Assembly: GCA_020073645.1 (NCBI GenBank)
Contig: JAIQET010000020.1
Location: 457-64,456 of the forward strand
Length of the DNA stretch: 64,000 nucleotides
Reading direction: 5' to 3'
DNA from: Terriglobia bacterium
GTDB taxonomy: Bacteria; Acidobacteriota; Terriglobia; Terriglobales; Acidobacteriaceae
Below, piece by piece: positions 6,916 through 53,241 of this stretch (the first letter of the stretch is position 1; each line of letters starts with the position of its first letter). The position numbers were made by a program, and so were the translations under genes. The notes below the pieces were generated by a model. The model worked only from the letters and a program-made list of their open reading frames with translations, ran no database searches and was not told the origin of the DNA.

Positions 6916-6982
6916 GACCGATCTGTCCTTGACCGAAACGTCCCGACCGTGGACTGGTTGCGCTGCAGGTGGGGTGGGGCAT

Positions 6983-7027: not shown

Positions 7028-7030
7028 ATA

Positions 7031-15495: not shown

Positions 15496-16575
<1,080 letters not shown>

Positions 16576-16671
16576 AAAAACCAGTCAGACACATAGAAGC
16601 AAACCAGCTTGCTGGTCGGTTGTGTGAGTTTACTTCTCTGTGTCTCCCTGGCCCTGTGGTGAAATAGTCCA

Positions 16672-17511
16672 GTGCTCCTCCGCGACGCTCTCACTTCGGC
16701 GATCAACCGCCTCGCCACTGCTCACGTAGGCTCACCGCGGATGAATGCGGAAGTCCTCCTCATGTTCGTGCTCGGCGCCGATCGCGCCTATCTCTATGCT
16801 CATCCCGAACGCGAGTTCACACCCGAAGAAAATGCCCGGTATGACGAGGCACTGACGCAGCGCGCCCGGGGCGTGCCGTCGCAGTACATCGTGGGACACC
16901 AGGAGTTCTGGGGAATGGACTTCATTGTGACACCCGCCGTTCTCATCCCGCGCCCCGAAACCGAGCATGTAATCGAAACGGTGTTGCCGCTGGCGCGGAG
17001 CCTGGACAAGCCGAAAGTCGTTGACGTCGGTACTGGATCAGGCTGTATCGCCATTGTCCTCGCCAACGAACTGCCCCAGGCCGAGATTTGCGCCACCGAG
17101 ATTTCTTCCGAGGCGCTCGAGATCGCCCGCGCCAATGCCGCGCGTCTCCAGTTCGAACACCGGATTCGGTTTCACCACACCGACTTGTTACAAGGATTCG
17201 ATGCCAACGCTTTCGATTTCGTCGTATCCAACCCTCCCTACGTGGGCGAATCCGAAGAAGACCAGGTGCAGCTCGAAGTACGCAAGTTTGAGCCGCGCCA
17301 TGCGGTGTTCGCGGGGCCCAGCGGCCTGGAGGTGATTGAGCGCCTGATTCCACAAGCACAGAACACGCTGAAGTCTGGCGGATGGCTGGTCGTGGAAATC
17401 AGCGGCACGATTGCAGCGGGAGTGCGACGGTTGCTCGGCGGCTGGGAGGATGTTCGCATCGCCGACGATTTACAGGGGATCCCACGCGTAGCTTCGGCAC
17501 GCAAACCTTGA
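16672..17511 (+). CDS. prmC: release-factor glutamine N5-methyltransferase PrmC/HemK
   Basis: SAM motif VVDVGTGSGCIA and catalytic NPPY (VVSNPPYV). Lies downstream of prfA. GTG start. Confidence 0.93.
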   Translation: MLLRDALTSAINRLATAHVGSPRMNAEVLLMFVLGADRAYLYAHPEREFTPEENARYDEALTQRARGVPSQYIVGHQEFWGMDFIVTPAVLIPRPETEHVIETVLPLARSLDKPKVVDVGTGSGCIAIVLANELPQAEICATEISSEALEIARANAARLQFEHRIRFHHTDLLQGFDANAFDFVVSNPPYVGESEEDQVQLEVRKFEPRHAVFAGPSGLEVIERLIPQAQNTLKSGGWLVVEISGTIAAGVRRLLGGWEDVRIADDLQGIPRVASARKP

Positions 17512-17871
17512 CGAGTGTCTTGGCCGCGGAACATCGCACACGTGCCACTCGGTCTTGCGTCAGCGGATGAAAAACTTTGCACAACTAGCGCTGGCCGTAG
17601 TGCGCCCGCAAAACTTTCGTCCACTCTAGAAATTGCCGCTCGCCTGCACTACAATCCTCCGCAATTTGTGAACGAACTTAGGGCTGGTCCATGGCGACAT
17701 AGCAGTTACGACCTCCCGGTTCAGTTTGTGATTGAAAGCCGCTGCCCGCTTGTTAGGAAAGTGCTCTGCCCAGTCGTCATGCACTAGGCGAGCTGCAGTC
17801 TGCAGCGGCCAGGTCCCAAGGGCCCTTATCCGAACCCGCCTTTCCAAGAATCAACTATGCGAGGAGAAAAC

Positions 17872-19320
17872 ATGAAGGTGTTGCGAACGCTCGGAGTGGC
17901 AGTGGTGGTCTTGCTGACTTTGGCTGGCGTTGCCGGAGCACAGTCGTGGCAACCGCTAGCGCATAAGCCTACGTTTAGCGCCAGTACAGCGCTGCTGCTG
18001 ACCGATGGCACGGTCATGGTCCACCAGTACAGCGGCTTGCAATGGTGGCGCCTGACCCCGGATAACACCGGCAGCTACGTCAACGGGACCTGGAGCCAAC
18101 AGGCGTCGTTGCCGTCGGATTACAGTCCGTTGTACTACGCTTCTGCGGTCCTGCCCGACGGCCGCCTCCTCGTGGAGGGCGGAGAATACAATTTCGGCCA
18201 GTTCGCCTGGACTAACCTGGGGGCGATTTACGATCCGTTAGCCAACACCTGGACCCATGTTTCGCCTCCCACCGGGTGGGCCAACATTGGCGACGCGCAG
18301 AGCGTGATTCTGTCCAGTGGCACGTTGATGCTGGCGAATGCCCTCACCAGCCAGCAGGCGCTGTTGAATGCTACGAACCTGACCTGGACCAGCACCGGCA
18401 GCGGCAAAGCGGACGGCAATGACGAGGAAGGGTGGGAGTTGTTGCCGAACGGGTTGGTGCTGACCGTCGATGCCAACAACACCAGCGACCTTATGCACTC
18501 CGAGAAGTACAGCTTTCGCGCGGGCAAGTGGATCAGCGCGGGCAGCACGATTGTCAAACTGCCGGATACGAATTCCGACGGCAGCGGATCGCACGAGATT
18601 GGACCGGCGATACTGCGGCCCGACGGCACGGTGTTTGCCATGGGAGGCACGGCGCACACCGCCATCTATAACACCACAACCGGCATTTGGACGACAGGTC
18701 CGGACTTCCCGAATGTTGGGGGGCAACTGGATATGGCCGATGCTCCCGCGTCCCTGCTGCCCAGCGGCAACGTGCTCTGCGACACCAGCCCGGGCGTCTT
18801 CCTGAAACCGACCCACTTTTTCGAGTTCGATGGGACCAGTTTCATCCAGGTTCCGGATCCACCCGACGCGACGAAAAAAACGTCGTTCGAAGGACGCATG
18901 CTGCTGCTTCCCACCGGCCAGGTCTTCTTCACCGATGGCACCACGGATGTGGAAGTCTACACGGCCAGCGGAAGCCCCGATCCGTCGTGGGCGCCAACCA
19001 TCCACTCCGTCCCCACCTCGATCACTCGCGGCGGTTCGTTCACGCTCTCGGGGACGCAGCTCCATGGCCTTTCGGCCGGTGCAGCCTACGGAGATGATGC
19101 GCAAATGGCTACCAATTACCCGCTGGTGCGCATCACCAACCACGCGACCGGGCATGTCTTCTATGCCCGCACGCACGATCACAGCAACATGTCAATTGCT
19201 CCGGGAGCCCGCTCGTCCACGCATTTCGATGTCTCGTCGACCGTGGAGACGGGCGCCAGCGACCTGGTGGTGGTGGCCAATGGGATCGCTTCCAAAGCGG
19301 TCACAGTTACTGTGCAGTAA
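17872..19320 (+). CDS. secreted Kelch/galactose-oxidase-like beta-propeller protein with C-terminal Ig-like domain
   Basis: Signal peptide MKVLRTLGVAVVVLLTLAGVAGAQ and repeated blade-like units (LPDGRLLVEGG, LRPDGTVFAMGG, LLPTGQVFFTDG). The function is not determined. Confidence 0.7.
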   Translation: MKVLRTLGVAVVVLLTLAGVAGAQSWQPLAHKPTFSASTALLLTDGTVMVHQYSGLQWWRLTPDNTGSYVNGTWSQQASLPSDYSPLYYASAVLPDGRLLVEGGEYNFGQFAWTNLGAIYDPLANTWTHVSPPTGWANIGDAQSVILSSGTLMLANALTSQQALLNATNLTWTSTGSGKADGNDEEGWELLPNGLVLTVDANNTSDLMHSEKYSFRAGKWISAGSTIVKLPDTNSDGSGSHEIGPAILRPDGTVFAMGGTAHTAIYNTTTGIWTTGPDFPNVGGQLDMADAPASLLPSGNVLCDTSPGVFLKPTHFFEFDGTSFIQVPDPPDATKKTSFEGRMLLLPTGQVFFTDGTTDVEVYTASGSPDPSWAPTIHSVPTSITRGGSFTLSGTQLHGLSAGAAYGDDAQMATNYPLVRITNHATGHVFYARTHDHSNMSIAPGARSSTHFDVSSTVETGASDLVVVANGIASKAVTVTVQ

Positions 19321-19342
19321 GGGGCGGTTTACGTTGGTTCTG

Positions 19343-19368
19343 AGGACGGGCGAAAGCCCGTCCTTTTG
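19343..19368 (+). terminator. Rho-independent terminator
   Basis: AGGACGGGC-GAAA-GCCCGTCCT followed by TTTTG, 23 nt after the stop codon. Confidence 0.75.
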
Positions 19369-19505
19369 CTTGGCTAGAAGTGGAATTTCAGGCTGCCGCC
19401 AACGGTGCGCGACGGCGCGTACTGGGTGGGAATCTCCTCACGCGTTAATGTTGAAGGACAGGCCGCCCTGCCCTCGGCCGTCCAAACCGGGCGCAGTCCG
19501 GCGCT

Positions 19506-22500
19506 TCAGAACGTTACCCGCACGCCCAATTGTGCCGCAAACGGAATCCCCACCGTCGTTCCGGGTCCGAAGAAATCGCCCAATGCGCCCGCGGGTTTGC
19601 GCAGCTGATTCAGGCTGGTGATTGGAATCAGCGTGGTGCAGTCCGCATTTCCGCAGAGGTCCGTGATGTTGCCGCCGATCTGATCTGCAGGCACACCGAG
19701 CGCGGCAACATCGGCCACGTAGTTGTTCGAGGGATTGTTCCGGTTGAAGAGATTGAGGAACTCGACAAAGGGCACGACCGACCAGCGGTCGCCCACCTTG
19801 ATCGGGCGGGCCACCCGCAGATCCACTTGCGCAAACGGGGTCCCACGGAATTGATCGAGGGTAGTCTTGACTCCGTTGATTACGGCGCGATTATCGCCGT
19901 CGCCCAGGGTGAAGGGCCGCGCGCTTTCAATTTGAGTCAAGGTGGAGAGCTCAAACCCGAGCGGCGCATGCACGATTCCTGCCAGCACAAAGCGGTGTCG
20001 GACGTCTTCTCCCGAGGGACCATAATCGCCCGGGGCAAACGCATTCAGCGGGTCGCACACGCCATTGACGTAGTCGAACAACTCACCTACATTGCAGCCC
20101 CAGGTCTTTGCAGTGGCCAAGGTGTAATGCGCAGTGAGGTTGAGCCGGCTCATGTTCCCCTGCAGCCGGATCGTCATCGCATCATAGCGGGAGCGGTTGT
20201 CGGTCTTGTAGACGTCGACGTTGGGGACGAAGTCCGCCTGTTCCGTGCCGTCTGGGAGGGGCAGCGGGGTAAACAGGCTGGCGCCACCGGCGAAGGGATA
20301 GGCGCGGTAAGCGTGCACGCCGTTCTCGTGGGTCCAGTCCGCACTCAGCGTCCAGTGCTCGTTCAGCGCATGCTGGATGCCGGCGCTGGCATGCAGGGCG
20401 TACGGCGTCTTGTAGTGCGGATCGATGATGGCGCCTTGCCCGCCAAAATTTGCGCCCGGAATGCACCCGGAGTTATCCACGCCCGGATTGGTCGGATCGG
20501 TGCAGGGACCAGGTGCTGCATTGACCGCCTGGAACGCTCCGACCCATCCGTTCTGCGCCAGGTCGTTGTAGTAGATGCCAATGCCAGCACGGATCACCGT
20601 GTTCTCGCTCCGTCCCGGTGAGTACACGATTCCCAACCGCGGCCCGAACTGGCTTCGATAGTCGTGCGGGGCGCTGTTGATCAGCGGAATCTGCAGCGCC
20701 TTCAACGTCAAGTAAGCCGGGTTTTGCAGTTGATTGCGGCCAGAGCCGGTGAACAGGCCGAAGGTCGTGTCGTAGCGCAATCCGTAATTCACCGTGAGGT
20801 GCGACGTCACGCGCCATGAATCCTGCGCGTACAGGCCCAGTCTTTGCAAGTTTTGTGAGAAGGTACCGTCCCCGGCCGGGGTGGCGGTGCAGGCGATGTT
20901 CGGATCCGGCACCGGGCTCAGGCAGGTGGGGTCAAAGTAGAACTGCGACGGATTGGTGGCATAGAAGCTGGGATTGTTCGGATACTGGATCAGCGCCTCC
21001 TCGGTGCCGGAAAGCGCTCCGCTCAGCACGGGTTCGTGAATAAAGTTGATGCCGAATTTCGGCGCATGGCGCCCCGAAGCGTGGCTTACGTCATAGCGAA
21101 ACTGGTACTTCTCCTGGTTGCGCAACACCGGAAACGCGGTGATCGGTGTGGCGAACTGGTTGTCGCCGAAGGTCTCGAAGCCGGAAATCGTTTGAAAGGT
21201 AGAGCTGAACGGGAAGGCGAGCGCAAAGCCGAGGTTCGAATTCCGCGACTCGGTGTGGTGCAGATAGCTGGCGCCGAAGGTGAACGACCCCAGCCACGTC
21301 GGGCTGAACGCGTAGGTGTTGCTGACGACCAGGTTCAGATAGTTGGATCCGGAAGTGGCGCCGGTGGAGGGCAGGGTCGCCTGCTGCACCAGGTCGTTGT
21401 TGGTGGTGTAGTTGTCGATTGCCGCACGCGCGAACCATTGCGACTTGAGTGATTGCGACCAGTCAAAGCGCAGCATCCCCAGCGCATCGCGGAACGGTAC
21501 CCTCACGTTGTTAGGCGCCGCGATCGAACTTACTCCCCTCGGCTGGCCCTCCAGGTTGAAGCCCATGATCAGCCCCTGCGACGCCAGCGAGGCCAGGGCG
21601 TTGAACTCCGAGAGACTGTCCGGGCTGTAGGCGACGCTGGCGTTCTCGTGGACGTACTCCAGCGACGAGAAAAACCACAGCTTGTCCTGCTTGATCGGTC
21701 CGCCCAGCGTGCCTATGTAGTTCTGTCGCGAGAATGGCTGTTTCGGCGCGGGCGGCGGGTTGTCAATCGGATAGCGTGCGTTCAGCGAAGCCGCGCGCCC
21801 GTAAAACGCCCCGCTTCCGTGCCAGGTGTTCGTCCCGTGCTTGGTGGTGATCACCACTGATCCGCCTACGGTCCGGCCGGTATCGGCGTCCTCCTGCGAC
21901 GTACGCACCGCGAATTCCTGGATCGCGTCCGGCGAGAAGTTCTGCAGGAATCCACCGATGTAGTCGTCCGAGTTGTCGGCGCCGTCCACCGACAAATCAA
22001 CGTTCAGCCCTGAACTCCCGCCGAACGAAACCGCCGTAATACGAGCCTTGGTGGGATCGGAGGGCTCGACCGGTTCGGTGCCCGGCACCAGATATGCGAT
22101 GTTGGCGAAGCTGCGGTGAGCCAATGGGATCGTGTCCAGATCATTCGCGGTGACCGCTCCCTGATGCACGGCGCTGGCTGTGTCGATTGGTTCGGCCGTA
22201 ATGGAAGAAGCCACGCCCTGAACGCTTATCGTCTGCGTCACTGCCTGTGGTTTCAGTGTGACCGAGAGGTCCCGCACGGTGCTGACCACGACGTCCACGT
22301 CAGCATCGGCATCCGCAAAGCCTTTGGCGTTGACCGCCACATGGTAGGCGCCCGGCAGCAGACCTTCGATGCGGAACTCTCCCCGGGCGTTGGTGAGCGC
22401 ATCCCTCATCAGATCCGAGCCCTTGGCCCGCACCACAATCTTGGCTGACGAGACCCGCCCGCCGCTGCCATCCTGTACCTCGCCACGCAGCGCACCCCGC

Positions 22501-22595
22501 GGGTTTTGCGCCAGGGCTGGGATGGCCAACTGCGAAACTAAAGCCACAATTAAACAGAGAAAGAACCGGAGAGTGACTGCTCGATGAAATGGCAT
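19506..22595 (-). CDS. TonB-dependent-receptor-like outer membrane protein with N-terminal carboxypeptidase-regulatory-like domain
   Basis: Signal peptide, then a CarboxypepD_reg-like Ig domain (GEVQDGSGGRVSSAKIVV...GAYHVAV) and a plug-like segment. A long beta-barrel follows, ending in an aromatic residue (VRVTF). Confidence 0.85.
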   Translation of the reverse strand: MPFHRAVTLRFFLCLIVALVSQLAIPALAQNPRGALRGEVQDGSGGRVSSAKIVVRAKGSDLMRDALTNARGEFRIEGLLPGAYHVAVNAKGFADADADVDVVVSTVRDLSVTLKPQAVTQTISVQGVASSITAEPIDTASAVHQGAVTANDLDTIPLAHRSFANIAYLVPGTEPVEPSDPTKARITAVSFGGSSGLNVDLSVDGADNSDDYIGGFLQNFSPDAIQEFAVRTSQEDADTGRTVGGSVVITTKHGTNTWHGSGAFYGRAASLNARYPIDNPPPAPKQPFSRQNYIGTLGGPIKQDKLWFFSSLEYVHENASVAYSPDSLSEFNALASLASQGLIMGFNLEGQPRGVSSIAAPNNVRVPFRDALGMLRFDWSQSLKSQWFARAAIDNYTTNNDLVQQATLPSTGATSGSNYLNLVVSNTYAFSPTWLGSFTFGASYLHHTESRNSNLGFALAFPFSSTFQTISGFETFGDNQFATPITAFPVLRNQEKYQFRYDVSHASGRHAPKFGINFIHEPVLSGALSGTEEALIQYPNNPSFYATNPSQFYFDPTCLSPVPDPNIACTATPAGDGTFSQNLQRLGLYAQDSWRVTSHLTVNYGLRYDTTFGLFTGSGRNQLQNPAYLTLKALQIPLINSAPHDYRSQFGPRLGIVYSPGRSENTVIRAGIGIYYNDLAQNGWVGAFQAVNAAPGPCTDPTNPGVDNSGCIPGANFGGQGAIIDPHYKTPYALHASAGIQHALNEHWTLSADWTHENGVHAYRAYPFAGGASLFTPLPLPDGTEQADFVPNVDVYKTDNRSRYDAMTIRLQGNMSRLNLTAHYTLATAKTWGCNVGELFDYVNGVCDPLNAFAPGDYGPSGEDVRHRFVLAGIVHAPLGFELSTLTQIESARPFTLGDGDNRAVINGVKTTLDQFRGTPFAQVDLRVARPIKVGDRWSVVPFVEFLNLFNRNNPSNNYVADVAALGVPADQIGGNITDLCGNADCTTLIPITSLNQLRKPAGALGDFFGPGTTVGIPFAAQLGVRVTF

Positions 22596-25484: not shown

Positions 25485-27083
25485 TCAATGGCAGTTATTG
25501 AACTTGAAGCTGTTGATGCGGGTGCTCCACTTAAACCCACCCGTCGTCTTGATGTATTCCTGCGTGTAGAAGAACGTGCAATCATCCGTCGGGTCGATGG
25601 ACATATCGCTGTAGTCGCCCCAGCGGTTCTGAGTGGCGGTCTGCACGCCGGTTCCCTTAATCACCACCTTGGGTCCTTCCATCATTCCCAGAGCGTCGGT
25701 GGGAATGCGCCCGGTGTAAATCACGCTGGGATCGAGGTTGGTGGCAGCAGAACCACTGAATCCCAGAGCGATATCACCGGCCTTGTCCATGGCGATGCTC
25801 GGCATCCACAGGCTGAATTTGCTGTGTTGGAAGGTGCCCGACTGGAACACGGTAAAGACGCCGCTGCCCACGGAGGTGGAGCGCAGCTCGTACCAGCGAG
25901 TCGCCGCCGTGGCCGTGGAGCCGGTTCCAGGCTTCACGGTGTGCGTGAGTACGATCGCCTCATGGTCACCGAAGTTGCGGTAAGCGAATCGGTACATGAG
26001 CCGGTTACCCAGCGAGTCCAGTTTTTCACCTGGAGAAGGCTGCGGAACGCAGGACCGGTTGGTTCCGTTGGCGCAGATCTCCGAAAAAGTGGGAACCGAG
26101 ATGGTTACCGGGCCGGTAAACGTGGAGTTCGTCGGGGTCACGAAGTCCACATGGAACTGGTAGATGTTGATCTGGTTGGTGGTGTTCCCCAGGTTGAAGT
26201 AGTAGTTGGGCGAGCCCGTGGGTGGAGCGGTGGCTCCATCCCAATCAGATGGGAATACCTCAAGTTGGCCGCTCTTGGTAAAGCACTGCATGGTAGCTGC
26301 ACTGCCGGCGAGAATCTTGGCCCGATCTGCGGCGCATGCCTGGGATCCAGTTTCGGACACGCCGTTCAGGAAGTTCCGGTAGCCCTGGTAGTAGGCATCC
26401 GGCCATATTCCCCACTTGGGATAGTCCGGGAAGTTGGTGGAACCAAGGTTGAACGCATAGCGGTTGTACGTGCCGGTCGCGTCCGACGTGGTCGAGACCG
26501 CCACGCATGCCATGTACGGCGGGGAGAACACGTTCTGAGCCACGAACCAGCGCTGCGCCTGCTTGTCGAAGATAACGATTGGATCACCGCTGTTGTTGGT
26601 CTGGCAGGACCCGCCAAAGCCGGACCAGAAAGCGTTACCAGCTATGGGGCCTAGAATCTTGGTACCCGTGGTCTTGTCGTAGACGTTGTACTCGATATTG
26701 ACCCACTGCACGTACTGCGTGGTTCCCACCGAGCCTTCGGTATCCGGCGGCGCCAGGCCATCCGCACCCTGGCCGTCGAAATTCAGCAGGTTGGTGGTCG
26801 AAACGTCGGGCAGCACCGCGGTTTGTGCCACTGGATCGGGTACATTACTCACCATTGGACGTCCAGGGGCGCCCGTCAGGTTGGGAACGATCCTCTGCGC
26901 GCGACTATCGGGCAGCGGAGTCAACCTCGCCATGTCCCGCAGCGGCAAAGAAATGTCGTGCTTGACTTCCGGGATGACCCGCACCCCTGTCAATCTCTCC
27001 TGGGCAAAGGTCGGAAGTACCAATAAGAACAGACATGCTAACAACAGCAGGCTGAGCAATCTGGGCAAGCGCGTACTTTGCAT
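25485..27083 (-). CDS. secreted hypothetical protein (possibly beta-propeller-like)
   Basis: Clear signal peptide (LLLLACLFLLVLPTFAQ) and a 532-aa ORF with ordinary amino-acid composition. A terminator follows. No motif was recognised with confidence. Confidence 0.7.
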   Translation of the reverse strand: MQSTRLPRLLSLLLLACLFLLVLPTFAQERLTGVRVIPEVKHDISLPLRDMARLTPLPDSRAQRIVPNLTGAPGRPMVSNVPDPVAQTAVLPDVSTTNLLNFDGQGADGLAPPDTEGSVGTTQYVQWVNIEYNVYDKTTGTKILGPIAGNAFWSGFGGSCQTNNSGDPIVIFDKQAQRWFVAQNVFSPPYMACVAVSTTSDATGTYNRYAFNLGSTNFPDYPKWGIWPDAYYQGYRNFLNGVSETGSQACAADRAKILAGSAATMQCFTKSGQLEVFPSDWDGATAPPTGSPNYYFNLGNTTNQINIYQFHVDFVTPTNSTFTGPVTISVPTFSEICANGTNRSCVPQPSPGEKLDSLGNRLMYRFAYRNFGDHEAIVLTHTVKPGTGSTATAATRWYELRSTSVGSGVFTVFQSGTFQHSKFSLWMPSIAMDKAGDIALGFSGSAATNLDPSVIYTGRIPTDALGMMEGPKVVIKGTGVQTATQNRWGDYSDMSIDPTDDCTFFYTQEYIKTTGGFKWSTRINSFKFNNCH

Positions 27084-28889: not shown

Positions 28890-31211
28890 CTAATCCGCCG
28901 CCACCGTCGCCGGTTCGGTCCGCAAAGCCGCTTCGAGCGCGTTCTCGTACACCTCGCGCAGCTCAGACACGCCTGCCGACACCGCTACCCGGCCATCCAA
29001 CTTGATTTCCATCTGTTCGGGAGCGGTCTCGCCCAGCATGTCCAACGAGAGGCCGTATTTTACCCCTATTTGTTGGATTCCGGAGAGATTACTGTGGTCG
29101 CACGAGATCACGATCCGGCTGGCATCCTCGCCGAAGAGGGCAAACTCGGGCGGCAACCCTTGGGAAGCCACATCCACTCTCATTCCAATGCCCTTGGGGA
29201 ACGCCGCCTCGGCCAGGGCGACCGCCAACCCGCCTTCGGAGCAGTCGTGGGCGGAGTCCAGCAGACCCGCCTGAATCATCTCAATCACCGCCTTCTGCAG
29301 GGCGGCTTCGCGCTCCAGTTCCAGTTCCGGCGGATAGCCCCACACCGTGCCCAGAACCTCTTTGGCGTACTCGGATGAGCCGAACTCCGATTCGACATCG
29401 GTAACGTCACCCGGCTCGGTGGCGCGTAGCAGGACAATCGCATGCCCCGTCTCGCGGAAATGCGGCAGGATCGCTTTGTGCACGTCGTCGAGAATTCCCA
29501 CCACGCCCACGACCGGCGTCGGATAAATTCCCTCACCCAAGGTCTCGTTGTAGAAGCTGACGTTGCCGCCGGTGATGGGGACCTCGAGTTCTTCGCAGGC
29601 CCTGGTCATGCCATCAATCACTTGCGAGAACTGCCACATGATGTGCGCTTTCTCCGGGTTGCCAAAGTTCAGGCAATTGGTCGCTCCCACCGGGGTGGCT
29701 CCGGCGCAGGCGACATTGCGCGCGGCCTCGGCAACGGCGTGCATGGCGCCCAGCCGCGGATCGAGATAGCACCAGCGTCCGTTGCCGTCGAGCGCCATCG
29801 CCAGCCCCCGCTGCGAACCCTTGATGCGAATCACGCCGGCATCGCCCGCGCCCGGGCTCTCCACCGTGTTGGTCTGCACCATGTGGTCGTATTGCTGCCA
29901 CACCCAGCGCTTGCCGCAGATGTTAGGGCTGGCGAGGAGCAGCTTCAGATTGCCGGTTAGGTCGCCCGGCTCGGCGAGCCTGATGTTCTCCGGCATCTCG
30001 CGCGGTACCGGCGGTTCCCAGCGCTCCAGAGGCCGCTTGTACAACGGCGCATCGTCAGTGAGCGCTTCGTTGGGGATTTCGGCGACAACCTGCCCGTGTT
30101 GCTTGACCCGCATCTTGCCGTCAGTAGTGACGCGTCCGACTTCTACCGCGTCCAGCCCCCACTTCTGGAATACGCGGAAGACTTCTTCCTCGCGGCCTTT
30201 TTGCGCCACCAGCAGCATGCGCTCCTGCGATTCGCTGAGCATGATCTCGTACGGAGTCATGCCGGTTTCGCGCTGGGGCACGCGATCCAGTTCAATCTCG
30301 ATTCCGACATGCCCGCGTCCGCCCATCTCGCACGTGGAGCAGGTGAGCCCAGCCGCGCCCATGTCCTGAATGCCCACAATGGCCCCGGTCTGCATGGCTT
30401 CGAGGCAGGCCTCGAGCAAAAGCTTCTCCAGAAACGGATCGCCCACTTGCACGTTGGGACGCTTGGCTTCCGAAGCTTCGCTGAATTCTTCACTGGCCAT
30501 GGTGGCCCCGTGAATGCCGTCGCGCCCGGTTTTCGAGCCAACGTAGATCACCGGGTTCCCTTCACCCGCGGCACGGGCATAGAAAATTTGGTCCCGCCGC
30601 ACCAGGCCAAGGGCAAACGCATTCACCAGCGGGTTGCCGGAGTAGCAGGGCTCGAACTTGGTCTCGCCCCCGAGGTTGGGGACTCCGAAGCAGTTGCCAT
30701 ATGAGGCAATCCCGCTGACCACGCCCTCCAAGACGGAATGATTCTTGTGAATCTCTGCTTGCGCGGGCGAGTCGCCCGCGCCCACACGGGCAGTGATCGG
30801 CCCGAAGCGCAGCGAGTCCATGATCGCCACCGGCCGCGCGCCCATGGTGAAAATGTCCCGCAGAATTCCGCCAACCCCGGTAGCCGCGCCCTGGAAAGGC
30901 TCAATAAATGAGGGATGATTGTGTGACTCGATCTTGAAGGCGCAGGCCCAGCCTTCCCCGATGTCAATGATACCCGCGTTCTCGCCTGGGCCCTGCACCA
31001 CCCGCCGGCTGCGCGTCGGGAGGCGCTTGAGATGGACGCGGGAAGACTTGTAGGAGCAATGCTCGCTCCACATCACGCTGAAGATGCCCAACTCCGTGAT
31101 GGTCGGCTCGCGCCCGCCCAGCAGTTGCTTGATTTTCTCGTATTCTTCCGGCGTAAGGCCGTGCTCACGGATGAGTTCGGAAGTAATGGCAGCAGTGGCG
31201 ACAGTGTTCAT
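28890..31211 (-). CDS. purL: phosphoribosylformylglycinamidine synthase subunit PurL
   Basis: 773 aa with the duplicated AIR-synthase-like domain pattern ([33 protein letters not shown]). Confidence 0.95.
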
Positions 31212-31296
31212 GGGGAAGTCCTATTTTCGCACGTTGGGGGGCGGAGGGGTAGGAGAGTGTTTGGCGCTACTGGCGCCCCGTAACCGGTGCATAACC

Positions 31297-31437
31297 TCAC
31301 GAGCTCCGGATCGGCCCCGGATACTGCGCCACCGTCGAATCGATGGTCAGCAGCGTAATGCCTTCCACCATGGCCTGGGCAACGAGTATCCGGTCTATTG
31401 GGTCGCGGTAAAATGGTGATATAGTCCGTATCCGCAC
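31297..31437 (-). pseudogene. 3' remnant (~45 codons) of a PIN-domain (VapC-like) toxin gene
   Basis: The C-terminal pattern FYRDPIDRILVAQAMVEGITLLTIDSTVAQY matches the H/RDPFDR-LIAQA...T.D motif of PIN toxins. There is no N-terminal PIN part, and the rest of the 212-aa ORF is antisense to the next gene. Confidence 0.6.
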
Positions 31438-31470
31438 GTGAGTCGGTAAGCAGCATCTTGGAGTCGAATC

Positions 31471-32736
31471 ATGTGTTGCAGCTCCTTTGGTCACAGTGTC
31501 CGCTACATTCTGGCATCCGTGTTTTTCCTTTTCTTGGTCAGCGGGTCTTGGGCACAAACTGTCAAGGTCATATACAGCTTCGCCGGTGGGGCAGACGGCG
31601 AGTACCCCGACACCGATCTCGTGGTGGACCTGACCGGCAACGTCTATGGCACCACGGTGCTGGGCGGCGCCTATGGCGGCGGTACGGTGTTCATGTTGTC
31701 GCCCAACGGCAGCGGCGGGTGGACGCACACGGTTCTCTATAATTTCACGTCTGGAGCTGATGGAGGCCAGCCATATAAGGGCGTAACTTGTGACTACCCC
31801 GAGTGCGCGTTCTCCGTGACTAGGCTGTATGGCGCAACGGTAACAGGGGGCACCGGCAGCGCTTGCGAGGGCGGCTGAGGTGTTGTCTACGAACTCTCGA
31901 ACAACGGTGGGGTGTGGACCGAAGCCGTCCTGCATAACTTTGCCGGTGGCAAAGATGGCTCAGGCCCGGGAAATAGCGTCGTCGCCGGCCTGGCGGGCAA
32001 TTTATACGGCATGACGCCAACCGGCGGTACTTACGGATTGGGCACAATCTATCAAGTTCGCGGGGGTGACTTCCGAGTGCTTCACGAGTTCACCGGCGGT
32101 GCGGACGGCGCACCCGGGTTGACCGATCGATTGTTCTACACATATGACAAAGCCCACCTGCTGGGAGTAACCACCGCGGGTGGTGCGAACGGAGCCGGCA
32201 CTGCGTTTGAACTTGATTCGGTATCGGGAGCCAAGGGTCAGTGGACCTTTAACACGCTTTATAGTTTTGCGGGAACGCCGAACTCCGGATTCCCGTACAG
32301 TGCGATCATCTTTGATCCAAAAAAGAACATCTACGGCACGACGTACTACGGCGGGGCAAATAATCTCGGGTCCGTGTACCAACTTCACGGCACTCAGGTT
32401 GGGTATCGGGAAAAAGTGCTTTACAGCTTCACCGGTGGCACTGACGGCAACAGGCCCCTCGGCAATCTTGTAGACGACTTCCTGGGAGGGAGTCTGTACG
32501 GCACTACCAGCGCAGGCGGTACGGCGAACGCAGGCACGATATTCAAGCTGACCCCGAATGGTGACGGCACATGGAGTGAGAGCGTCGTGTACAGCTTTCA
32601 GGGAAGCCCAGACGCCGCACTGCCCTACACCGGGATGGTGGGGGCCAGTCCGGGTATCGTCAATAGCACCTACTACGGAGCAACGGTGTCGGGTGGCACC
32701 TACAACCAGGGCGCAATTTATCAGCTTGTACCGTAA
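31471..32736 (+). CDS. secreted tandem-repeat protein (Gloeo_Verruco/GloVer-type repeat, 7 units) interrupted by one in-frame TGA at 31876-31878
   Basis: ORFs 31471-31878 and 31879-32736 share one frame and the same ~55-aa repeat (LYSF.GG.DG..P......GNLYGTT..GG....GT[VI][FY].L). An N-terminal signal peptide is present. The TGA could be Sec, read-through or a nonsense mutation; this is unresolved. Confidence 0.7.
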
Positions 32737-32869
32737 CAAGCGCGGCCGCAGGCGAACGCCGGCATTCCTTACTCCGGTAATCCTAAACACGATGTGCGCC
32801 GGAGGCGAGTCGACCGACTCATTGCTGCCTGAAAGATCGTGTCTGCATCTCTAGTATCATTCTCCTCCC

Positions 32870-34771
32870 ATGAAGTCTGTGATCGTCGGTACCGCGGGCC
32901 ACATCGACCACGGCAAAACCGCGCTGGTCAAGGCATTGACCGGCATCGACGCCGACCGCCTGGAAGAAGAAAAGCGCCGCGGCATTACGATCGATATAGG
33001 CTTCGCGCATCTCGACCTAGCCGGTCCCGGCGGCGAGACTCTCCGGCTGGGCTTTGTGGACGTTCCCGGGCACGAGCGCTTCGTGCGCAACATGCTGGCG
33101 GGGGTGGGCGGCATTGACCTGGTCCTGCTGGTGATCGCGGCAGATGAATCCATCAAGCCGCAGACCCGCGAGCACTTTGATATCTGCCGCCTGCTGTCGG
33201 TGCGCCGCGGCATTACCGTGCTGACCAAGTCCGACCTGGTGGATGCGGAAACGCTCGAGGTGGTGCGGCTGGAGGTAGAAGAGTTCCTGTGCGGCTCCTT
33301 TCTCTCCGGAAAATCGCCAATTGTTCCGGTGAGCTCACTGACCGGCGCCGGCCTCGACCAGCTCAAACAAGCACTGGTCAAGGTGGCGGCCGAAGTCCTC
33401 GCCAAAGATTCCACCGCGCTGGCGCGCCTGCCGATTGACCGCGTGTTCACCATCAAGGGCTTCGGCACGGTGGTGACGGGCACGCTGGTTTCAGGCGCGA
33501 TTCGCAAGGAAGAGGAAGTGGAGGTCTTTCCCAAGGGGCAACGAGTGCGTGTCCGCGGAGTACAGGTACACGGGCAGCCGGCGGACCAGGCCGTGGCCGG
33601 CCAGCGAACGGCGCTGAACCTGGCGGGGGTGACCAAAGAAGAGCTGGAACGCGGCATGATGCTGGCGCCTCCCGCAACGTTTCACACCACCTGGCGGGCG
33701 GATGTCTCGCTTTCGCTGCTGCCATCGGCCAAGCCTTTGAAGGACCGCTCGCGCGTGCACCTTCATGCGTACACCTCGGAAACGCTGGCCGAAGTCGTGC
33801 TCCTGGGACAAAAGCAAATTGCGCCCGGGCAAACCTCGCTGGCGCACTTGCGCCTTGCTGACCCCCTGTTATTGCTGCCGGGCGATCGCTTCATCATTCG
33901 CCAATTCTCTCCGGTGGTCACGATTGGTGGAGGCGTGGTGCTGGATGCCTCACCCCTGGTGCGCAAGACGAGCTCGCAGGAGAGAATCCTGTTTCTGGAG
34001 AAAATGGACAAGGGTGGGCCCGAGGAAGTGCTGGCCGCCCGCATTCAGCGCCGCGGCAAGCTGGGGCTCACCGTCGCGTCGGCGATTGCGGAAACGGGAT
34101 GGACGCGGGGGCGGGTTGCTTCCTCGGCGGGTACCTTGCTCGCCGCAGCGGAAATCGTGCGGGCCTCCGATCTGTTCCTCTCCACCGAGACGTTCCGCGC
34201 CGCCAGCGCGGAGGCGTTGGTGGCCGTGACTGCGTTTCACAACTACGACCCCCTGGTGCCGGGCATCGGCCGGGAGACCCTGCGGGAACGGCTCGATCTA
34301 GGCCCAGAGGTATTCTCCGCAATTCTCGACTCATTGGTTCGCGACAAGAAGTTGGAGATCGCCGGAGAACAGGTGCACGCAGCGGGCCGCGGCGTCGTGA
34401 TGAAAGACGAAGAGGCCGAATCCAAGCAGATCATCGAGAGCGCGTTTGCATCCGCGGGCCTGAAGGTGCCTTCACTCCGCGATGTGCTGGCCGGGCTCAA
34501 GGTGGACAAGACCCGCGCCCAGAAGATTGTCACCTTGCTACTGCGCGACAAGGTACTGATCAAGATTTCCGAAGAACTGGTTTTCCACCGCGATGCGCTG
34601 GACGATCTCCGCAAGCGTATGCAGGCGCAGAAGAACGCCTCGCCGAAAATTGATGTTGCCAAGTTCAAGGATCTGGCCGGAGTCAGCCGCAAGTACGCAA
34701 TTCCGCTGCTGGAGTATCTGGACCGTGAGCGAGTGACGCGAAGAGTCGGGGATGAACGAGTGATTCTTTAG
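32870..34771 (+). CDS. selB: selenocysteine-specific translation elongation factor SelB
   Basis: GTPase motifs [17 protein letters not shown] and TKSD. EF-Tu-like domains II/III are followed by about 270 aa of C-terminal winged-helix repeats ending in [26 protein letters not shown]. Confidence 0.9.
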
Positions 34772-34876: not shown

Positions 34877-35356
34877 ATGCTTTCAATTCGTCCTGCGACT
34901 GTCCAGGATGTGCCTCTGCTCAGCACACTCATCCGCGAGCTGGCAGAGTACGAGAAAGAGCTCGATGCGGTGGAGATCACGGAGTCGGAACTAGCGCGGG
35001 ACGGCTTTGGTCCCGACCCGAAGTTTCGCGCGCTGATCGCCGAGTGGGACGGGCAACCTGCCGGCTACGCCTTTTTCTTTGACTTTTACAGCACCTGGAC
35101 CGGCCGGCATCTGTTTCTCGAAGACCTGTTCGTGCGGCTGCAGTTTCGCGGTAAGGGAATCGGCAAGAGCCTGATGGCGCAGGTTGCAGCCATTGCTCAG
35201 CAGGAGAACTGCAGGGCCATGCGCTGGGAAGTGCTGGGTTGGAACCGATCCGCGATTGAAGTGTACCGCGCGCTGGGAGCGGAGTTTCTTGACGACTGGA
35301 ATCTGATGTTGCTGAGGGGCAAGCCATTGCGCGAGTTGGCGGAGAGTGCAAAGTGA
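34877..35356 (+). CDS. GNAT-family N-acetyltransferase (diamine/spermidine acetyltransferase-like)
   Basis: Acetyl-CoA motif RLQFRGKGIGKSLM; 159 aa. Confidence 0.85.
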   Translation: MLSIRPATVQDVPLLSTLIRELAEYEKELDAVEITESELARDGFGPDPKFRALIAEWDGQPAGYAFFFDFYSTWTGRHLFLEDLFVRLQFRGKGIGKSLMAQVAAIAQQENCRAMRWEVLGWNRSAIEVYRALGAEFLDDWNLMLLRGKPLRELAESAK

Positions 35357-36681
35357 GCTCACGGGTGCGCGTAATCGGCGCTGGTCTTGCCGGATCCGAG
35401 GCGGCGTGGCAGTGCGCTCGCCGGGGAGTGGCGGTCGAACTCTGCGAGATGCGGCCGATGCGCTCGACACCGGCCCACCAGACCGGCGACTTCGCGGAAC
35501 TGGTCTGCTCGAACTCGTTGAAGTCCGAGAGCGAGAACACCGCTCCCTGGCTGCTGAAAGAAGAGCTGCGGCGGGCAGGGTCGCTCCTGATCGAAATCGC
35601 GCGCCAGTGTGCTGTGCCGGCGGGGCATGCGCTGGCCGTTGATCGAGTGACGTTTGCGAAGAAGGTCACAGAAGCCATTTCGCGGGAACCGATGATCGCG
35701 GTGCGGCGGGAAGAGGTGATGCGCATCTCTGAGGACCAGATCACGATCGTCGCTACAGGGCCTCTGACCTCGGATGGGCTGTCGGAGGAGATTGGCCGGC
35801 TGAGCGGGTCGACACGCCTTTATTTCTACGATTCAATCAGCCCGATCGTGGAAGCAGAGTCGATCGACATGGCGAAGGTGTACCTGGCGGCGCGTTACGA
35901 CAAGGGCACGGCCGACTACATCAACTGCCCGATGTCGCAGGAAGAGTATGACCGCTTCTACGACGCGCTCATCTCGGCCCAGTCCGTGGAAGAACGCGAC
36001 TGGGAGAAACTGAATTACTTCGAGAGCTGTCTGCCGATCGAAGAGATTGCGCGGCGTGGGCGGGACACTCTTCGCTTTGGGCCCATGAAGCCGGTCGGCC
36101 TCAAAGACCCGCGCACCGGGCGTCCACCCTACGCCGTGGTGCAGTTGCGGCAGGAAAACCTGCGGGCGGATTCCTACAACCTGGTCGGCTTTCAGAACCA
36201 CCTGAAGTTCGGCGAGCAAGCACGGGTGTTGCAACTGATCCCCGGCCTGGAAAACGCGCGCTTCCTGCGCTACGGGCAAATCCATCGGAATACCTACATC
36301 AATGCTCCGACGCTTCTGCGCGAGACGCTGCAAATGAAAGAGCATCCCCGGGTATTGTTTGCTGGACAGATCTGTGGGGTGGAAGGCTACGTGGAGTCGA
36401 TTGCCACGGGGTTGATGGCGGGCGTGCACGCAACCGCGTTGTCGATGGGCGCCGAGCCCGTTGCGCCTCAGCGGGCGACGGCTCTCGGATCCCTGGTGCA
36501 CTACATTACTCACGCCGATGCCAATAGATTCCAGCCCGCGAACATCACCTTTGACCTGCTGCCCGCTCTGGAGCAAAAAATCCGCGATCGCCAGGTGCGA
36601 CACCGGCGCCAGTGCGAACTCGCCCTGCGGGAGTTTGAGAGCTGGCTGGAGAAAGTCGGGGTGGTCCAAGCGGTGCGGTAA
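35353..36681 (+). CDS. trmFO: methylenetetrahydrofolate--tRNA-(uracil54-C5)-methyltransferase TrmFO
   Basis: VRVIGAGLAGSEAAWQ FAD motif, ELVCSNSLKS, and typical length. The GTGA start overlaps the upstream stop. Confidence 0.93.
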   Translation: MSSRVRVIGAGLAGSEAAWQCARRGVAVELCEMRPMRSTPAHQTGDFAELVCSNSLKSESENTAPWLLKEELRRAGSLLIEIARQCAVPAGHALAVDRVTFAKKVTEAISREPMIAVRREEVMRISEDQITIVATGPLTSDGLSEEIGRLSGSTRLYFYDSISPIVEAESIDMAKVYLAARYDKGTADYINCPMSQEEYDRFYDALISAQSVEERDWEKLNYFESCLPIEEIARRGRDTLRFGPMKPVGLKDPRTGRPPYAVVQLRQENLRADSYNLVGFQNHLKFGEQARVLQLIPGLENARFLRYGQIHRNTYINAPTLLRETLQMKEHPRVLFAGQICGVEGYVESIATGLMAGVHATALSMGAEPVAPQRATALGSLVHYITHADANRFQPANITFDLLPALEQKIRDRQVRHRRQCELALREFESWLEKVGVVQAVR

Positions 36682-36920
36682 CTTTACCCCAGCGGCTAAG
36701 CCGCGCTGATTCCGGATAGTGATCGCAGCGCTGAAGCGCTGCGCCACCCAAAACCAGACTCCTATTAGCAGCCCCCTAATCCCCATTTGGCAGGTTCTCA
36801 ATCCTCCAATTCCTGCAACAAAAGCGATCAGGCTTGCGTATCACCAGGAGGGGCTCTTTGCCCCTACGGTCGGCTCACATTCGGTGAGTGTCTGCGTCCA
36901 TACAGCACGGGAAGTCCGGC

Positions 36921-38180
36921 ATGGTCCTGCGCGATCTTATTGGCGACGTATTCCGCACCCTGTGGTCACACAAGCTGCGCACCTTCCTGACGATGTTCGG
37001 TATTGCCTGGGGCATCGTCTCCATTGTGCTGATGGTGGCGGCGGGCGAGGGCTTGCGGAAAGGGCAGGAAGACCAGGCGAAGAACCTGGGCAAGGACATC
37101 ATGATCGTCTTCCACGGGCGCACCAGCCTGCAGGTGGGAGGCGCGCGCGCCGGGCGCGTGGTGCACTGGGAAGATTCCGACGTTGCGGTCGTCCAGACGG
37201 AGTCGCCGGACTGCCAGTACGCCATCCCGGAATTGGAGCAGGACAATGTCCGCTCGCACACGGCTCACAACGCGGCGGCGTTGACCGTGACTGGGTCGTT
37301 CCCAGAATTTGGGGACATTCGCAGCCTGGGTGTGGGCTCAGGACGTTACTACAACTGGGACGATCAAAACGACTCCCGGCGCGTGGCTTTCCTGGGCAGC
37401 GACGCCGCCAAACAGCTTTTCCCCCATGGGGATGCCGTCAATCAAACCGTGTATCTCAATGACATCCCCTACACCGTCATCGGAGTCATGCTGAAGAAGA
37501 AACAGGATTCGAGCTATGACGGCTGGGACGTAAACAAGATTTTCATTCCTTTTGCCGCCATGCGGCGGGATTTTCCGGACAAACCGCCGGGAACACCGAC
37601 TACCTTCGACCAGATGCTGGTCACTCCCAAGTCGGTGGAGCAGCACGAGGCGTGCAAACGCGAAGTCCGCGCAGCGCTGGGACGGATGCACAACTTCGAC
37701 CCCAACGACAAGGAAGCCTGTCCCATCTGGGACACGGTGCAGGAGGCGAAAGCCTTCCGCCAGATGACCGATGGCATGAAGTACTTCCTGGGTGCTGTCG
37801 GTCTTGTGACCCTATTTCTCGGCGGGCTGGGAGTGATGAACGTGATGATGGTGGCAGTGCGGGAGCGGACCCGCGAGATCGGTGTGCGCAAGGCGCTGGG
37901 TGCGCCGGCACGCACCATCCTGCAGCAGTTTTTTTATGAGGCCCTGCTGATCGCGTTTGTCAGCGGCGGCGTGGGCCTGGGGGTGGCCTACGGAATCTGC
38001 GGCCTGGTGAACCTGCTGCCCATGCCCGATTTCTTCGCGGGATTGCTGGCCACGTGGAAGTCCGGCTTGCTGGCCTGCGGGCTGCTGGGGACCATTGCGG
38101 TGCTTTCGGCCTTGTATCCGGCGCGCAGAGCCGCGTCGGTGGATCCGATCGAGGCGCTACGGTTTGAGGCGGGGGGATGA
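36921..38180 (+). CDS. MacB-type ABC transporter permease (MacB periplasmic domain + FtsX), no adjacent ATPase
   Basis: N-terminal TM helix (LRTFLTMFGIAWGI), a large periplasmic domain and a C-terminal FtsX 3-TM module (REIGVRKALGA). Confidence 0.85.
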   Translation: MVLRDLIGDVFRTLWSHKLRTFLTMFGIAWGIVSIVLMVAAGEGLRKGQEDQAKNLGKDIMIVFHGRTSLQVGGARAGRVVHWEDSDVAVVQTESPDCQYAIPELEQDNVRSHTAHNAAALTVTGSFPEFGDIRSLGVGSGRYYNWDDQNDSRRVAFLGSDAAKQLFPHGDAVNQTVYLNDIPYTVIGVMLKKKQDSSYDGWDVNKIFIPFAAMRRDFPDKPPGTPTTFDQMLVTPKSVEQHEACKREVRAALGRMHNFDPNDKEACPIWDTVQEAKAFRQMTDGMKYFLGAVGLVTLFLGGLGVMNVMMVAVRERTREIGVRKALGAPARTILQQFFYEALLIAFVSGGVGLGVAYGICGLVNLLPMPDFFAGLLATWKSGLLACGLLGTIAVLSALYPARRAASVDPIEALRFEAGG

Positions 38181-38185
38181 AAAGC

Positions 38186-38274
38186 AGGCTCCAGGCTCTG
38201 GGCTTCAGGCCATACTGCCTGGAGAAAGCGGTAGTCGCCACCTTGAAAAGCCTAGAACCTAGAGCCTAAAGCCT
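38186..38274. repeat. imperfect inverted repeat made of heptamer words (AGGCTCN x4 ... CCTARAR x4) between the two permease genes
   Basis: The left arm 38186-38211 and the right arm 38248-38274 are about 19/26 complementary. The right arm ends at the ATG of the second permease. Confidence 0.6.
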
Positions 38275-39531
38275 ATGTTGACCGAGATCATTCGCGAAGC
38301 CTGGATTGCGCTGAAGCGCAACTACACCCGCAGCATGCTGACCATGCTAGGTATCGTGTGGGGCATCGCGACCGTTACCCTGCTGATCGCCTATGGCAGC
38401 AGCTTTCGCCGCATCCTGGTCAACGGGTTTGACGCTTTCGGAAAGAGCGTCGTCATTTGCTGGCCGCAGCAGACCAGCGAACAGCCGGGTGGACAGCGTG
38501 CCGGCAAAAAAGTGCTGCTGGAGCGGGCCGATCTGGAAATGATCAAGCAGGACGCTCCCTTGGTGAAACACGCCTGTCTGGAGACTGTTCGCCGTCCCGG
38601 TGTCAGTTATGGTGACCGCATGGTGGGGACGGCCGCCGTACGCGGCGTCTGCCCCGAGTACGGCGAAATGCGCAACGAGGTGCCTTCGGAAGGCCGCTGG
38701 CTGAGCGCGGGCGACGAACTGGAGCGGCGCCGGGTGGCATTCCTGGGCGGACGCATTCGCGAACAACTGTTCAGCGGGCGCCCGGCAGTGGGGGAAACGA
38801 TCCAGATCGGCGGGGTGCGTTTCACGGTCGTCGGGGTGATGGCGCGCAAGATCCAACTGAGCAACTATTTCAGCTCGGATGACGAATCGGTGTGGATCCC
38901 TTATTCCGCGGCTGGCGATCTCTGGAATACCCGCTACGCTGCGGTGATGGTGTTTGAGCCCATCGCACCCCAGTTTGAGAAGAAAGCCATGGCGCAGGTG
39001 CTGGCGGCGATTGCCACGCGCCAGCAATTTTCGCCCACCGACAAGAAAGCCATCCAGATGTTCGGGCGCGACGAATTCCGCCCAGTGATTGACGCCCTCA
39101 CCATCGGGCTCCAGGTGCTGCTCACGTTCATCGGCACGCTGACGCTCGGCATCGGCGGCGTAGGCGTGATGAACATCATGCTGGTTTCAGTGGATGAGCG
39201 CATCCGGGAAATCGGCCTGCGCCGCGCCCTGGGTGCGAGAAAACGACACATCAAGCTGCAGTTCCTGGCTGAAACCTTGCTCATCATGCTGCTGGGCGGA
39301 GCCATCGGCGTCTTGCTGTCCTACGCCATCGCCGCTGCGGTGGGCACGCTGCCGCTGATGGGGCCGCTGTTCGAGGACGACTCGGGCAAGGGCGACATCC
39401 ACCTGAAGATCTCGCTGATGACCGTGATGCTTTCCACCCTCGTGCTGCTGGTAGTGGGAGTGATCAGCGGGCTGGTGCCGGCGCTGCGCGCCTCCAAGCT
39501 GGATCCAGTGGAAGCGCTAAGGTACGAGTAG
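38275..39531 (+). CDS. MacB-type ABC transporter permease (paralogue of the upstream gene)
   Basis: Same architecture as the upstream gene (MLTMLGIVWGI ... REIGLRRALGA ... ALRASKLDPVEALRYE). Confidence 0.85.
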   Translation: MLTEIIREAWIALKRNYTRSMLTMLGIVWGIATVTLLIAYGSSFRRILVNGFDAFGKSVVICWPQQTSEQPGGQRAGKKVLLERADLEMIKQDAPLVKHACLETVRRPGVSYGDRMVGTAAVRGVCPEYGEMRNEVPSEGRWLSAGDELERRRVAFLGGRIREQLFSGRPAVGETIQIGGVRFTVVGVMARKIQLSNYFSSDDESVWIPYSAAGDLWNTRYAAVMVFEPIAPQFEKKAMAQVLAAIATRQQFSPTDKKAIQMFGRDEFRPVIDALTIGLQVLLTFIGTLTLGIGGVGVMNIMLVSVDERIREIGLRRALGARKRHIKLQFLAETLLIMLLGGAIGVLLSYAIAAAVGTLPLMGPLFEDDSGKGDIHLKISLMTVMLSTLVLLVVGVISGLVPALRASKLDPVEALRYE

Positions 39532-53236: not shown

Positions 53237-53241
53237 CTGGC

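Follow-up and report, generated by a model that had tools for sequence, protein, structure and literature searches.

A single in-frame TGA at an invariant cysteine codon of a GloVer repeat gene beside selB in a Terriglobia genome is probably a very young nonsense mutation

A stretch of 64,000 nucleotides (nt) from a Terriglobia bacterium (assembly GCA_020073645.1, contig JAIQET010000020.1, positions 457 to 64,456 of the forward strand), in the following called the window, contains a gene for a secreted protein of the GloVer tandem repeat family which lies directly upstream of selB, the gene of the selenocysteine (Sec)-specific elongation factor, and which is interrupted by one in-frame TGA. 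An earlier interpretation of these letters, here termed the sequence-only reading, had proposed a candidate new selenoprotein and had named a very recent TGC-to-TGA nonsense mutation, i.e., a pseudogene, as fallback. Of the two, the fallback turned out to be the better supported, and the selenoprotein failed most of the tests applied to it, namely those for a Sec insertion sequence (SECIS) element, for other relatives with UGA and for a conserved linkage to selB. We consider it probable that the TGA is a very young TGC-to-TGA nonsense mutation in a recently inserted GloVer gene, that it is fixed in a clonal population and that the link to selB is coincidental. What is new here is an individual member of the known GloVer family, which carries an ordinary lesion.

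The proposed course of events starts with a lineage that would have gained the gene of a secreted seven-bladed GloVer beta-propeller as an insert of ~1.6 kb that entered the variable purL-selB spacer. One C-to-A transversion would then have changed TGC into TGA at the second Cys of the motif C-E-G-G-C in blade 2, and the ribosome would most likely read this UGA as an ordinary stop. The truncated product, consisting of the signal peptide and approximately 1.5 blades, would presumably be non-functional and the locus would represent a very young pseudogene or null allele, whose mutation became fixed in a near-clonal population too recently for damage to have accumulated in the 3' part. The gene belongs to a large and probably redundant family of secreted GloVer beta-propellers.

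The open reading frame (ORF) 31471-31878 continues in frame into the stretch 31879-32736, and the TGA at 31876-31878 is the sole interruption between them. It is codon 136 of the 421 codons of the joined ORF and stands in the context ...TGGTGSACEGG[TGA]GVVYELS; neither a stop nor a frameshift follows until the TAA at 32734-32736. Everything the sequence-only reading had listed in this respect was recovered in sequence and translation: two ORFs of the same frame split only by the TGA, 421 codons, a signal peptide, seven repeats and 286 undisturbed codons behind the TGA (285 sense codons plus the TAA). The joined product begins with a signal-peptide-like segment (MCCSSFGHSVRYILASVFFLFLVSGSWA/QT) and comprises seven repeats of ~55 amino acids (aa) with the motif YG-T-x-GG-x(2-6)-G-[TVA]-[VIA]-[FY]-x-[LV], and a peptide read across the TGA would be LYGATVTGGTGSACEGG(U/C/W)GVVYELSNNGGVWTEAVLHNFAGGK. 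The NCBIfam model TIGR03803, 'choice-of-anchor tandem repeat GloVer-containing protein', matched the joined ORF in six stretches with 180.4 bits (cutoff 44); Pfam holds no model for it, and TIGR03803 as a term did not occur in the literature searched. The claim that repeat unit 2 is the only unit with Cys residues is correct (C107, C112, and C132); the signal peptide contains two more. At NCBI the locus is represented by the proteins MBZ5705371-MBZ5705373 (locus tags LAN63_08460, LAN63_08465, and LAN63_08470), of which LAN63_08465 is called at 31912-32736 as a hypothetical protein of 274 aa from a Terriglobia metagenome-assembled genome (MAG), with GTG 31912 as start codon.

Alignment with relatives showed that the TGA occupies the column of a strictly conserved Cys. 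In a first alignment (A1) this column is Cys in all 18 full-length homologues, which are 55-80% identical to the joined ORF, and in a second one (A3, 46 sequences) it is Cys in each of the 45 full-length relatives. The Cys four residues before it is likewise invariant in both alignments, resulting in the motif C-E-G-G-C-G-V, and the exact string CEGGCGV.[YF].L was present in 90 of the 120 best protein matches. The closest homologue, P0001, is collinear with the joined ORF over its full length (100% query coverage, 80% identity) and has the codon TGC at this column, so that the TGA is one mutational step away; the 17 other homologues are 55-62% identical and can be aligned without gaps around the column. 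The Cys-like character of the position, as postulated by the sequence-only reading, was thus borne out more strongly than could have been foreseen, and its proposed check of the aligned position in relatives returned Cys in all full-length sequences aligned.

As a member of the GloVer family (TIGR03803) the joined ORF resembles hundreds of ~410-aa proteins from metagenomes of soil Acidobacteriota and Verrucomicrobiota, to which it is 55-80% identical, including the C-E-G-G-C loop of unit 2. It differs from them in the TGA as codon of the second loop Cys, in its position as an insert between purL and selB, and in an additional CDYPEC loop in repeat unit 2 (C-x-Y-P-E-C), which P0001 alone among the aligned sequences shares. 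The P0001 gene is located at 8001-9263 of contig L011 (JGI Ga0070741_10009398) and also occurs in L012 and L013, between pspA and a DUF4019 gene. Private departures from conserved positions of the family are more numerous in P0001 than in the TGA-bearing gene.

The TGA is highly reproducible. The downstream ORF of 274 aa was detected with identical sequence on at least 12 contigs, and all 10 contigs examined, from ten separate assemblies, are identical in the 40-mer that surrounds the TGA and have the pair of ORFs of 135 and 274 aa in common. The allele is present in the ENA assemblies ERZ27247929, ERZ27247941, ERZ27247996, and ERZ27248000 and in the Logan assemblies SRR15677221, SRR15677227, SRR15677234, SRR29366187, SRR29366193, and SRR29366203, and thereby in at least two run series (SRR156772xx and SRR293661xx) plus ERZ272479xx. 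Measured against full-length homologues, a premature stop at codon 136 of 421 is therefore reproduced in 10 contigs from 10 assemblies, which is what a pseudogene would display. A sequencing or assembly artefact which conceals a true TGC or TGT has a reasonable prior for a MAG, and the sequence-only reading had judged a sequencing error to explain the data equally well; however, no evidence in its favor was found, and the same TGA in ten independent assemblies effectively refutes it, leaving next to no chance that the codon is an error.

Over up to 6.3 kb the ten contigs differ from the window at 0-2 positions. Since they are nearly identical and all carry the TGA, the population is nearly clonal with the TGA allele fixed in it, and dN/dS within this population is not computable. 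Across the contigs the sole single nucleotide polymorphism within the GloVer gene is T31789C in contig L009, which replaces Cys107 by Arg, a radical change that we count in favor of a nonsense allele. The last ~100 nt of L009 (ENA ERZ27247929 k141_273046; window 32935-33035) belong to another selB allele, which differs mostly at third codon positions and is 84% identical to L025; this points to a co-occurring related strain or to a chimeric assembly.

Comparison of the flanking sequences revealed how the gene came to lie beside selB. The purL gene on the left encodes, in the same form in contig L001, the Pfam domains FGAR-AT_linker, AIRS, and AIRS_C, and is 85-89% identical at the nucleotide level to the gene directly beside selB in L020, L021, and L022. 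These three contigs encode SelB proteins of 90-93% identity in the order purL (on the minus strand), selB, acetyltransferase, and trmFO; their purL-selB distance is ~100 nt (spacer at 525-627 in L020 and 1447-1548 in L021) without a GloVer gene. In the window the spacer extends from 31194 to 32869. The spacer alignment shows that homology to L020-L022 breaks off ~60 nt beyond the start of purL and sets in again ~35 nt ahead of the ATG of selB, i.e., the insert interrupts an ancestral spacer of ~100 nt; its GC content is 0.55-0.60 compared with 0.61-0.67 in the flanks. At 80% SelB identity, L023 (7517-8000) and L024 have a geneless spacer of 485 nt, and in L025 a tetratricopeptide repeat gene of 540 aa is placed between purL and selB (6072-8000). 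No remnant of a GloVer gene was detectable in the L020-L025 loci at the nucleotide or protein level: the close relatives examined lack the GloVer gene altogether at the selB locus, and the nearest homologue P0001 resides in a different locus, in the PspA/DUF4019 context.

The vicinity of selB is hence recent, lineage-specific, and located at an already variable spot. Because the GloVer-selB linkage is neither conserved nor old, we regard it as coincidental, a by-product of the place of insertion; the support for Sec which the sequence-only reading had derived from it no longer stands. As a caution for similar cases, a UGA at a conserved Cys beside selB can be a coincidence, which is quickly uncovered when the synteny of close relatives is compared. 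Most of the ancestral region ahead of selB has been displaced by the insert, and ~35 nt of it are left. A scan for promoters and terminators in 31150-32950 gave nothing in either class, a result which is uninformative for Acidobacteriota promoters. Since so little of the ancestral spacer remains and the stretch from the GloVer stop to selB has no terminator-like site, selB may now depend on transcription through the GloVer gene. For the regulation of selB in Terriglobia, the variable purL-selB spacer may be of some minor interest. The features of the region are summarized in Table 1.

Table 1. Features of the purL-selB region of the window and hairpins downstream of the TGA.
Feature	Position	Strand	Remarks
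purL (FGAM synthase II), conserved left neighbor of selB	28890..31211	-	773-aa ORF
Lineage-specific insert of ~1.6 kb with GloVer gene	31270..32835		boundaries approximate
5' part of GloVer gene (signal peptide and blades 1-2, end ...SACEGG)	31471..31875	+	NCBI hypothetical protein LAN63_08460
In-frame TGA, aligned with the second, invariant Cys of the C-E-G-G-C loop	31876..31878	+	from alignments; TGC in closest homologue
3' part of GloVer gene (rest of blade 2, blades 3-7; 285 sense codons and TAA)	31879..32736	+	
Hairpin of the sequence-only reading, GUUGU-CUA-CGA-[ACUC]-UCG-A-ACAAC	31882..31905	+	-4.1 kcal/mol, no G in loop, 14 nt from UGA
Alternative 35-nt hairpin, apical loop AACAA	31885..31919	+	-10.8 kcal/mol, spacing 21 nt, no G in loop, 3-bp upper stem
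GUGG-tetraloop hairpin	31902..31929	+	-10.5 kcal/mol, 35 nt after UGA; only candidate under relaxed 3-bp model
selB, Sec-specific elongation factor, full length	32870..34771	+	TIGR00475 377 bits, cutoff 242

The selB gene itself is intact. The sequence-only reading had correctly described it as full-length and as starting 133 nt after the GloVer stop on the same strand, and all SelB Pfam domains are present (GTP_EFTU, D2, the SelB beta-barrel, and two SelB winged-helix domains). Its omega (dN/dS) of 0.09-0.10 at a synonymous divergence (dS) of 0.41-0.51, calculated against three relatives, indicates purifying selection, and from this constraint it follows that the lineage very probably uses Sec somewhere. 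Further parts of the Sec machinery were missing from the window, in agreement with the sequence-only reading: ARAGORN found no tRNA or tmRNA in the whole 64 kb, hence no tRNA-Sec, and a Pfam scan of 40 further window ORFs identified no selA, selD or known selenoprotein family. A general reassignment of UGA was considered as well and rejected, because TGA is the normal stop of 13 of the 36 Pfam-supported window genes. Of the release factors, RF1 is encoded in the window (prfA, paired with prmC at 15496-17511); RF2, the reader of UGA, is not.

The main rival explanation is that of a genuine, newly born selenoprotein, in which SelB decodes the UGA as Sec by means of a non-canonical SECIS element, for example the hairpin at 31902-31929. 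In a secreted beta-propeller this would create a selenenylsulfide loop of the form C-x3-U, and the gene may share a transcript with selB. For the examination of this possibility the bacterial SECIS (bSECIS) consensus criteria (PMC13188914) were implemented as follows: a loop of 3-9 nt, an upper stem of at least 4 bp, a G in the first two loop positions, a spacing of 16-37 nt and a folding energy of at most -7.5 kcal/mol. No hairpin at the TGA site fits this strict model, though the three positive controls fdhF, fdnG, and fdoG from Escherichia coli all passed the same code (-11.9 to -14.2 kcal/mol, spacing 18-19 nt, loops GGUC and GUC), as did 52.5% of 400 random in-frame codons in window genes. 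If the upper stem is relaxed to 3 bp, the pass rate of random in-frame codons in the window rises to 75%, and the GUGG-loop hairpin becomes acceptable. The hairpin which the sequence-only reading had located 4 nt after the UGA and described as short and devoid of the loop G/U does exist, but it is weak and fails three of the four bSECIS criteria, and its role as SECIS element was not upheld.

Folding of the first 40 and 70 nt behind the UGA was no better than that of dinucleotide shuffles (z = +0.76 and +0.28), and in a side-by-side comparison of the first 40 nt the E. coli controls reached z values of -1.3 to -1.9 versus +0.09 in the window. Rfam returned nothing for 31700-32100 at E-values up to 10 and nothing for the whole window at gathering thresholds. 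Moreover, the Cys-encoding homologue in L011 forms a comparable hairpin in the homologous region, which, in the same position, is even accepted by the strict model; we therefore interpret the hairpin at 31902-31929 as a by-product of the encoded segment NGGVWTE. A SelB-competent hairpin, for which the sequence-only reading had suggested a search, was accordingly not obtained under the published bSECIS model by folding, shuffling or model scan. Some bacterial SECIS elements are known to deviate from the consensus model (PMC13188914), and for this reason failure of the strict model is not absolute. In sum, there is no positive SECIS evidence, and the strict-model failure weighs mildly against Sec.

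The search for further UGA-bearing relatives points in the same direction. The pattern C-E-G-G-TGA-G-V-x-[YF]-x-L was scanned in 241 million JGI metagenome records and in 185,579 species genomes, which gave six and three loci, respectively, all of them chance matches and none a GloVer gene; the Cys form was assessed for comparison by the motif count among the 120 best protein matches. Among 120 short homologous fragments none ended in ...CEGG except this strain's own two alleles. Conservation of the UGA in other GloVer members, as would be expected of a selenoprotein, was thus found in none of the metagenome, genome, and fragment searches, and no second UGA-bearing relative was found among thousands of Cys forms.

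Insight into the role of the Cys pair was provided by an AlphaFold model of P0001 (46-sequence alignment; predicted local distance difference test score 85, predicted template modeling score 0.85), which is a closed beta-propeller. In this model the C-E-G-G-C segment is part of a loop (residues 124-137) ahead of a blade strand. The best Foldseek matches in the PDB are the seven-bladed Photorhabdus lectins PLL, PHL, PLL3, and PLL5 (5c9l, 5mxh, 6t96, and 8q83; TM scores 0.53-0.63, E-values 3e-9 to 1e-7), to which the sequence identity is 11-13%, so that the resemblance is one of fold only. A PDB sequence search yielded no relatives, and the fold search yielded generic seven-bladed propellers only. 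The modeled loop position, which is not that of a thioredoxin-like redox site, and a fold not suggestive of redox chemistry differ from the surroundings in which Sec commonly arises (PMC1794560); the two Cys of the pair are probably joined in a small structural disulfide. The predicted fold and the loop position thereby suggest a structural rather than a catalytic Cys, which is a further point against Sec. As a stop at codon 136 leaves the signal peptide and ~1.5 blades, the propeller could presumably not close.

The model also bears on the notion of two functional genes, a secreted fragment of 135 aa and a cytoplasmic one of 274 aa starting at GTG 31912. Gene callers and NCBI do annotate two proteins, but each of the 45 full-length relatives consists of a single chain, the model forms one closed propeller of seven blades, the break lies inside blade 2, the 3' piece lacks a signal peptide, and the short-fragment search uncovered no other family member split at this point. 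We regard this explanation as very remote.

The condition of the 3' part permits an estimate of the age of the TGA. In comparison with the P0001 gene, omega is 0.107 for the mature protein ahead of the TGA and 0.118 behind it (dS ~0.8), and polarization with 17 outgroups assigned two unique substitutions upstream of the TGA to the branch of the window gene and eight to that of P0001. Downstream there is neither a frameshift nor a second stop nor relaxed constraint, that is, none of the lesions by which a pseudogene could be recognized, and the check for purifying selection on the 3' part which the sequence-only reading had suggested was answered in the affirmative. The 3' part has thus not drifted neutrally for long. 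If the TGA is a stop, the lack of 3' decay implies that it is very young; as a rough inference from ~640 non-synonymous sites without visible excess, it would be younger than ~1% synonymous divergence.

The same intact 3' part with its low omega would be consistent with a leaky, hypomorphic allele, in which the UGA acts as a stop and is read through at low frequency by near-cognate tRNAs (Trp or Cys), so that a little full-length propeller would still be produced and some selection on the 3' part persists. Among the bacterial stop codons, UGA is the leakiest. Nothing in the sequence demands this explanation, however, because a young mutation accounts for the intact 3' part equally well, and no structure that promotes read-through was found; leakiness consequently appears quite improbable.

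Several observations do weigh against a nonsense mutation and have to be considered together. There are 27 single-base changes able to create a TGA in the GloVer gene, six of them at Cys codons, and only ~2 of the 27 strike the invariant Cys pair; the chance that a random gene directly adjoins selB is in the order of 1 in 1000. Taken jointly, the UGA at a Cys and the adjacency of selB form an uncomfortable coincidence. The 285 downstream codons show no relaxed selection (omega as given above), the unique changes downstream of the TGA amount to seven on the branch of the window gene and 19 on that of P0001 (17 outgroups), and just one private departure from a strongly conserved column is found downstream on the window branch. 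Furthermore, the TGA allele is stable and fixed in samples of at least two run series, and no Cys allele of this particular gene was present in the searched collection, in which the best full-length match is 80% identical and has another genomic context. Finally, the SECIS model is not universal, and the GUGG-loop hairpin 35 nt downstream fits its relaxed version.

Most of these points can be claimed by the selenoprotein explanation: the position of the UGA coincides with an invariant Cys, the 3' part is undamaged and its omega equals that of the 5' part, the allele is fixed in 10 of 10 contigs from ten independent assemblies without a Cys counterpart in the collection, an intact and constrained selB follows immediately without a terminator-like site in between, one tetraloop hairpin starting with GU fits the relaxed model (spacing 35 nt, -10.5 kcal/mol), and some real bSECIS elements lie outside the consensus. 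None of them constitutes positive evidence for decoding. On the other side stand the failed strict model, the absence of excess folding energy, the equivalent hairpin in the Cys homologue, the missing UGA-bearing relatives, and the recent, unconserved linkage to selB. Like the bacterial Sec/Cys pairs represented by E. coli FdhF, FdnG, and FdoG, the window gene has an in-frame UGA at a strictly conserved Cys in an organism encoding SelB. In contrast to these, its site possesses neither a consensus bSECIS with a GU-containing loop nor excess structure, its product is a lectin-like propeller and not an oxidoreductase, and, in contrast to bacterial selenoproteins, other Sec-form relatives were not found. 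On balance we hold a newly born selenoprotein to be unlikely.

A more specific version, to which we assign a low probability, would be a Cys-to-Sec conversion near its birth, in which a structural loop Cys of a secreted, lectin-like beta-propeller is replaced, the GUGG hairpin serves as SECIS element and the gene was inserted upstream of selB. If this were true, the insert would probably be co-transcribed with selB, and Sec insertion would therefore hold ribosomes on the mRNA and sustain selB expression. The protein would then be the first Sec-containing GloVer or beta-propeller protein, a rare exported selenoprotein without oxidoreductase function and a new family outside the oxidoreductases; it would also offer a snapshot of the route from a Cys codon to a Sec codon, which is an open question in the evolution of selenoproteomes. 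A 2026 review of prokaryotic selenoproteomes (PMC13188914) contains no mention of 'repeat', 'secreted' or 'Acidobacter'.

Some features of the remaining window were recorded in addition. Downstream of selB, a GNAT acetyltransferase gene (34877-35356) precedes trmFO (35353-36681), with which it overlaps by 4 nt; the GNAT gene is present in L020-L022 and absent from L023 and L024, where trmFO directly follows selB. Two tandem genes for MacB-like permeases (MacB_PCD and FtsX) are encoded downstream of trmFO at 36888-39531, an arrangement which is kept in L020. Three ORFs had no Pfam match at E-values up to 1e-5, namely 25485-27083 (minus strand, 532 aa), 3391-4395 (plus strand, 334 aa), and 53209-54159 (minus strand, 316 aa), and some of them may not be genes, given the GC-rich window. 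At 17857-22595 a protein of 487 aa with a weak Kelch motif is encoded beside a gene of 1029 aa on the opposite strand, which comprises CarboxypepD_reg and an outer membrane protein (OMP) beta-barrel and is TonB-dependent-receptor-like; the Kelch protein represents another gene of the secreted propeller type nearby.

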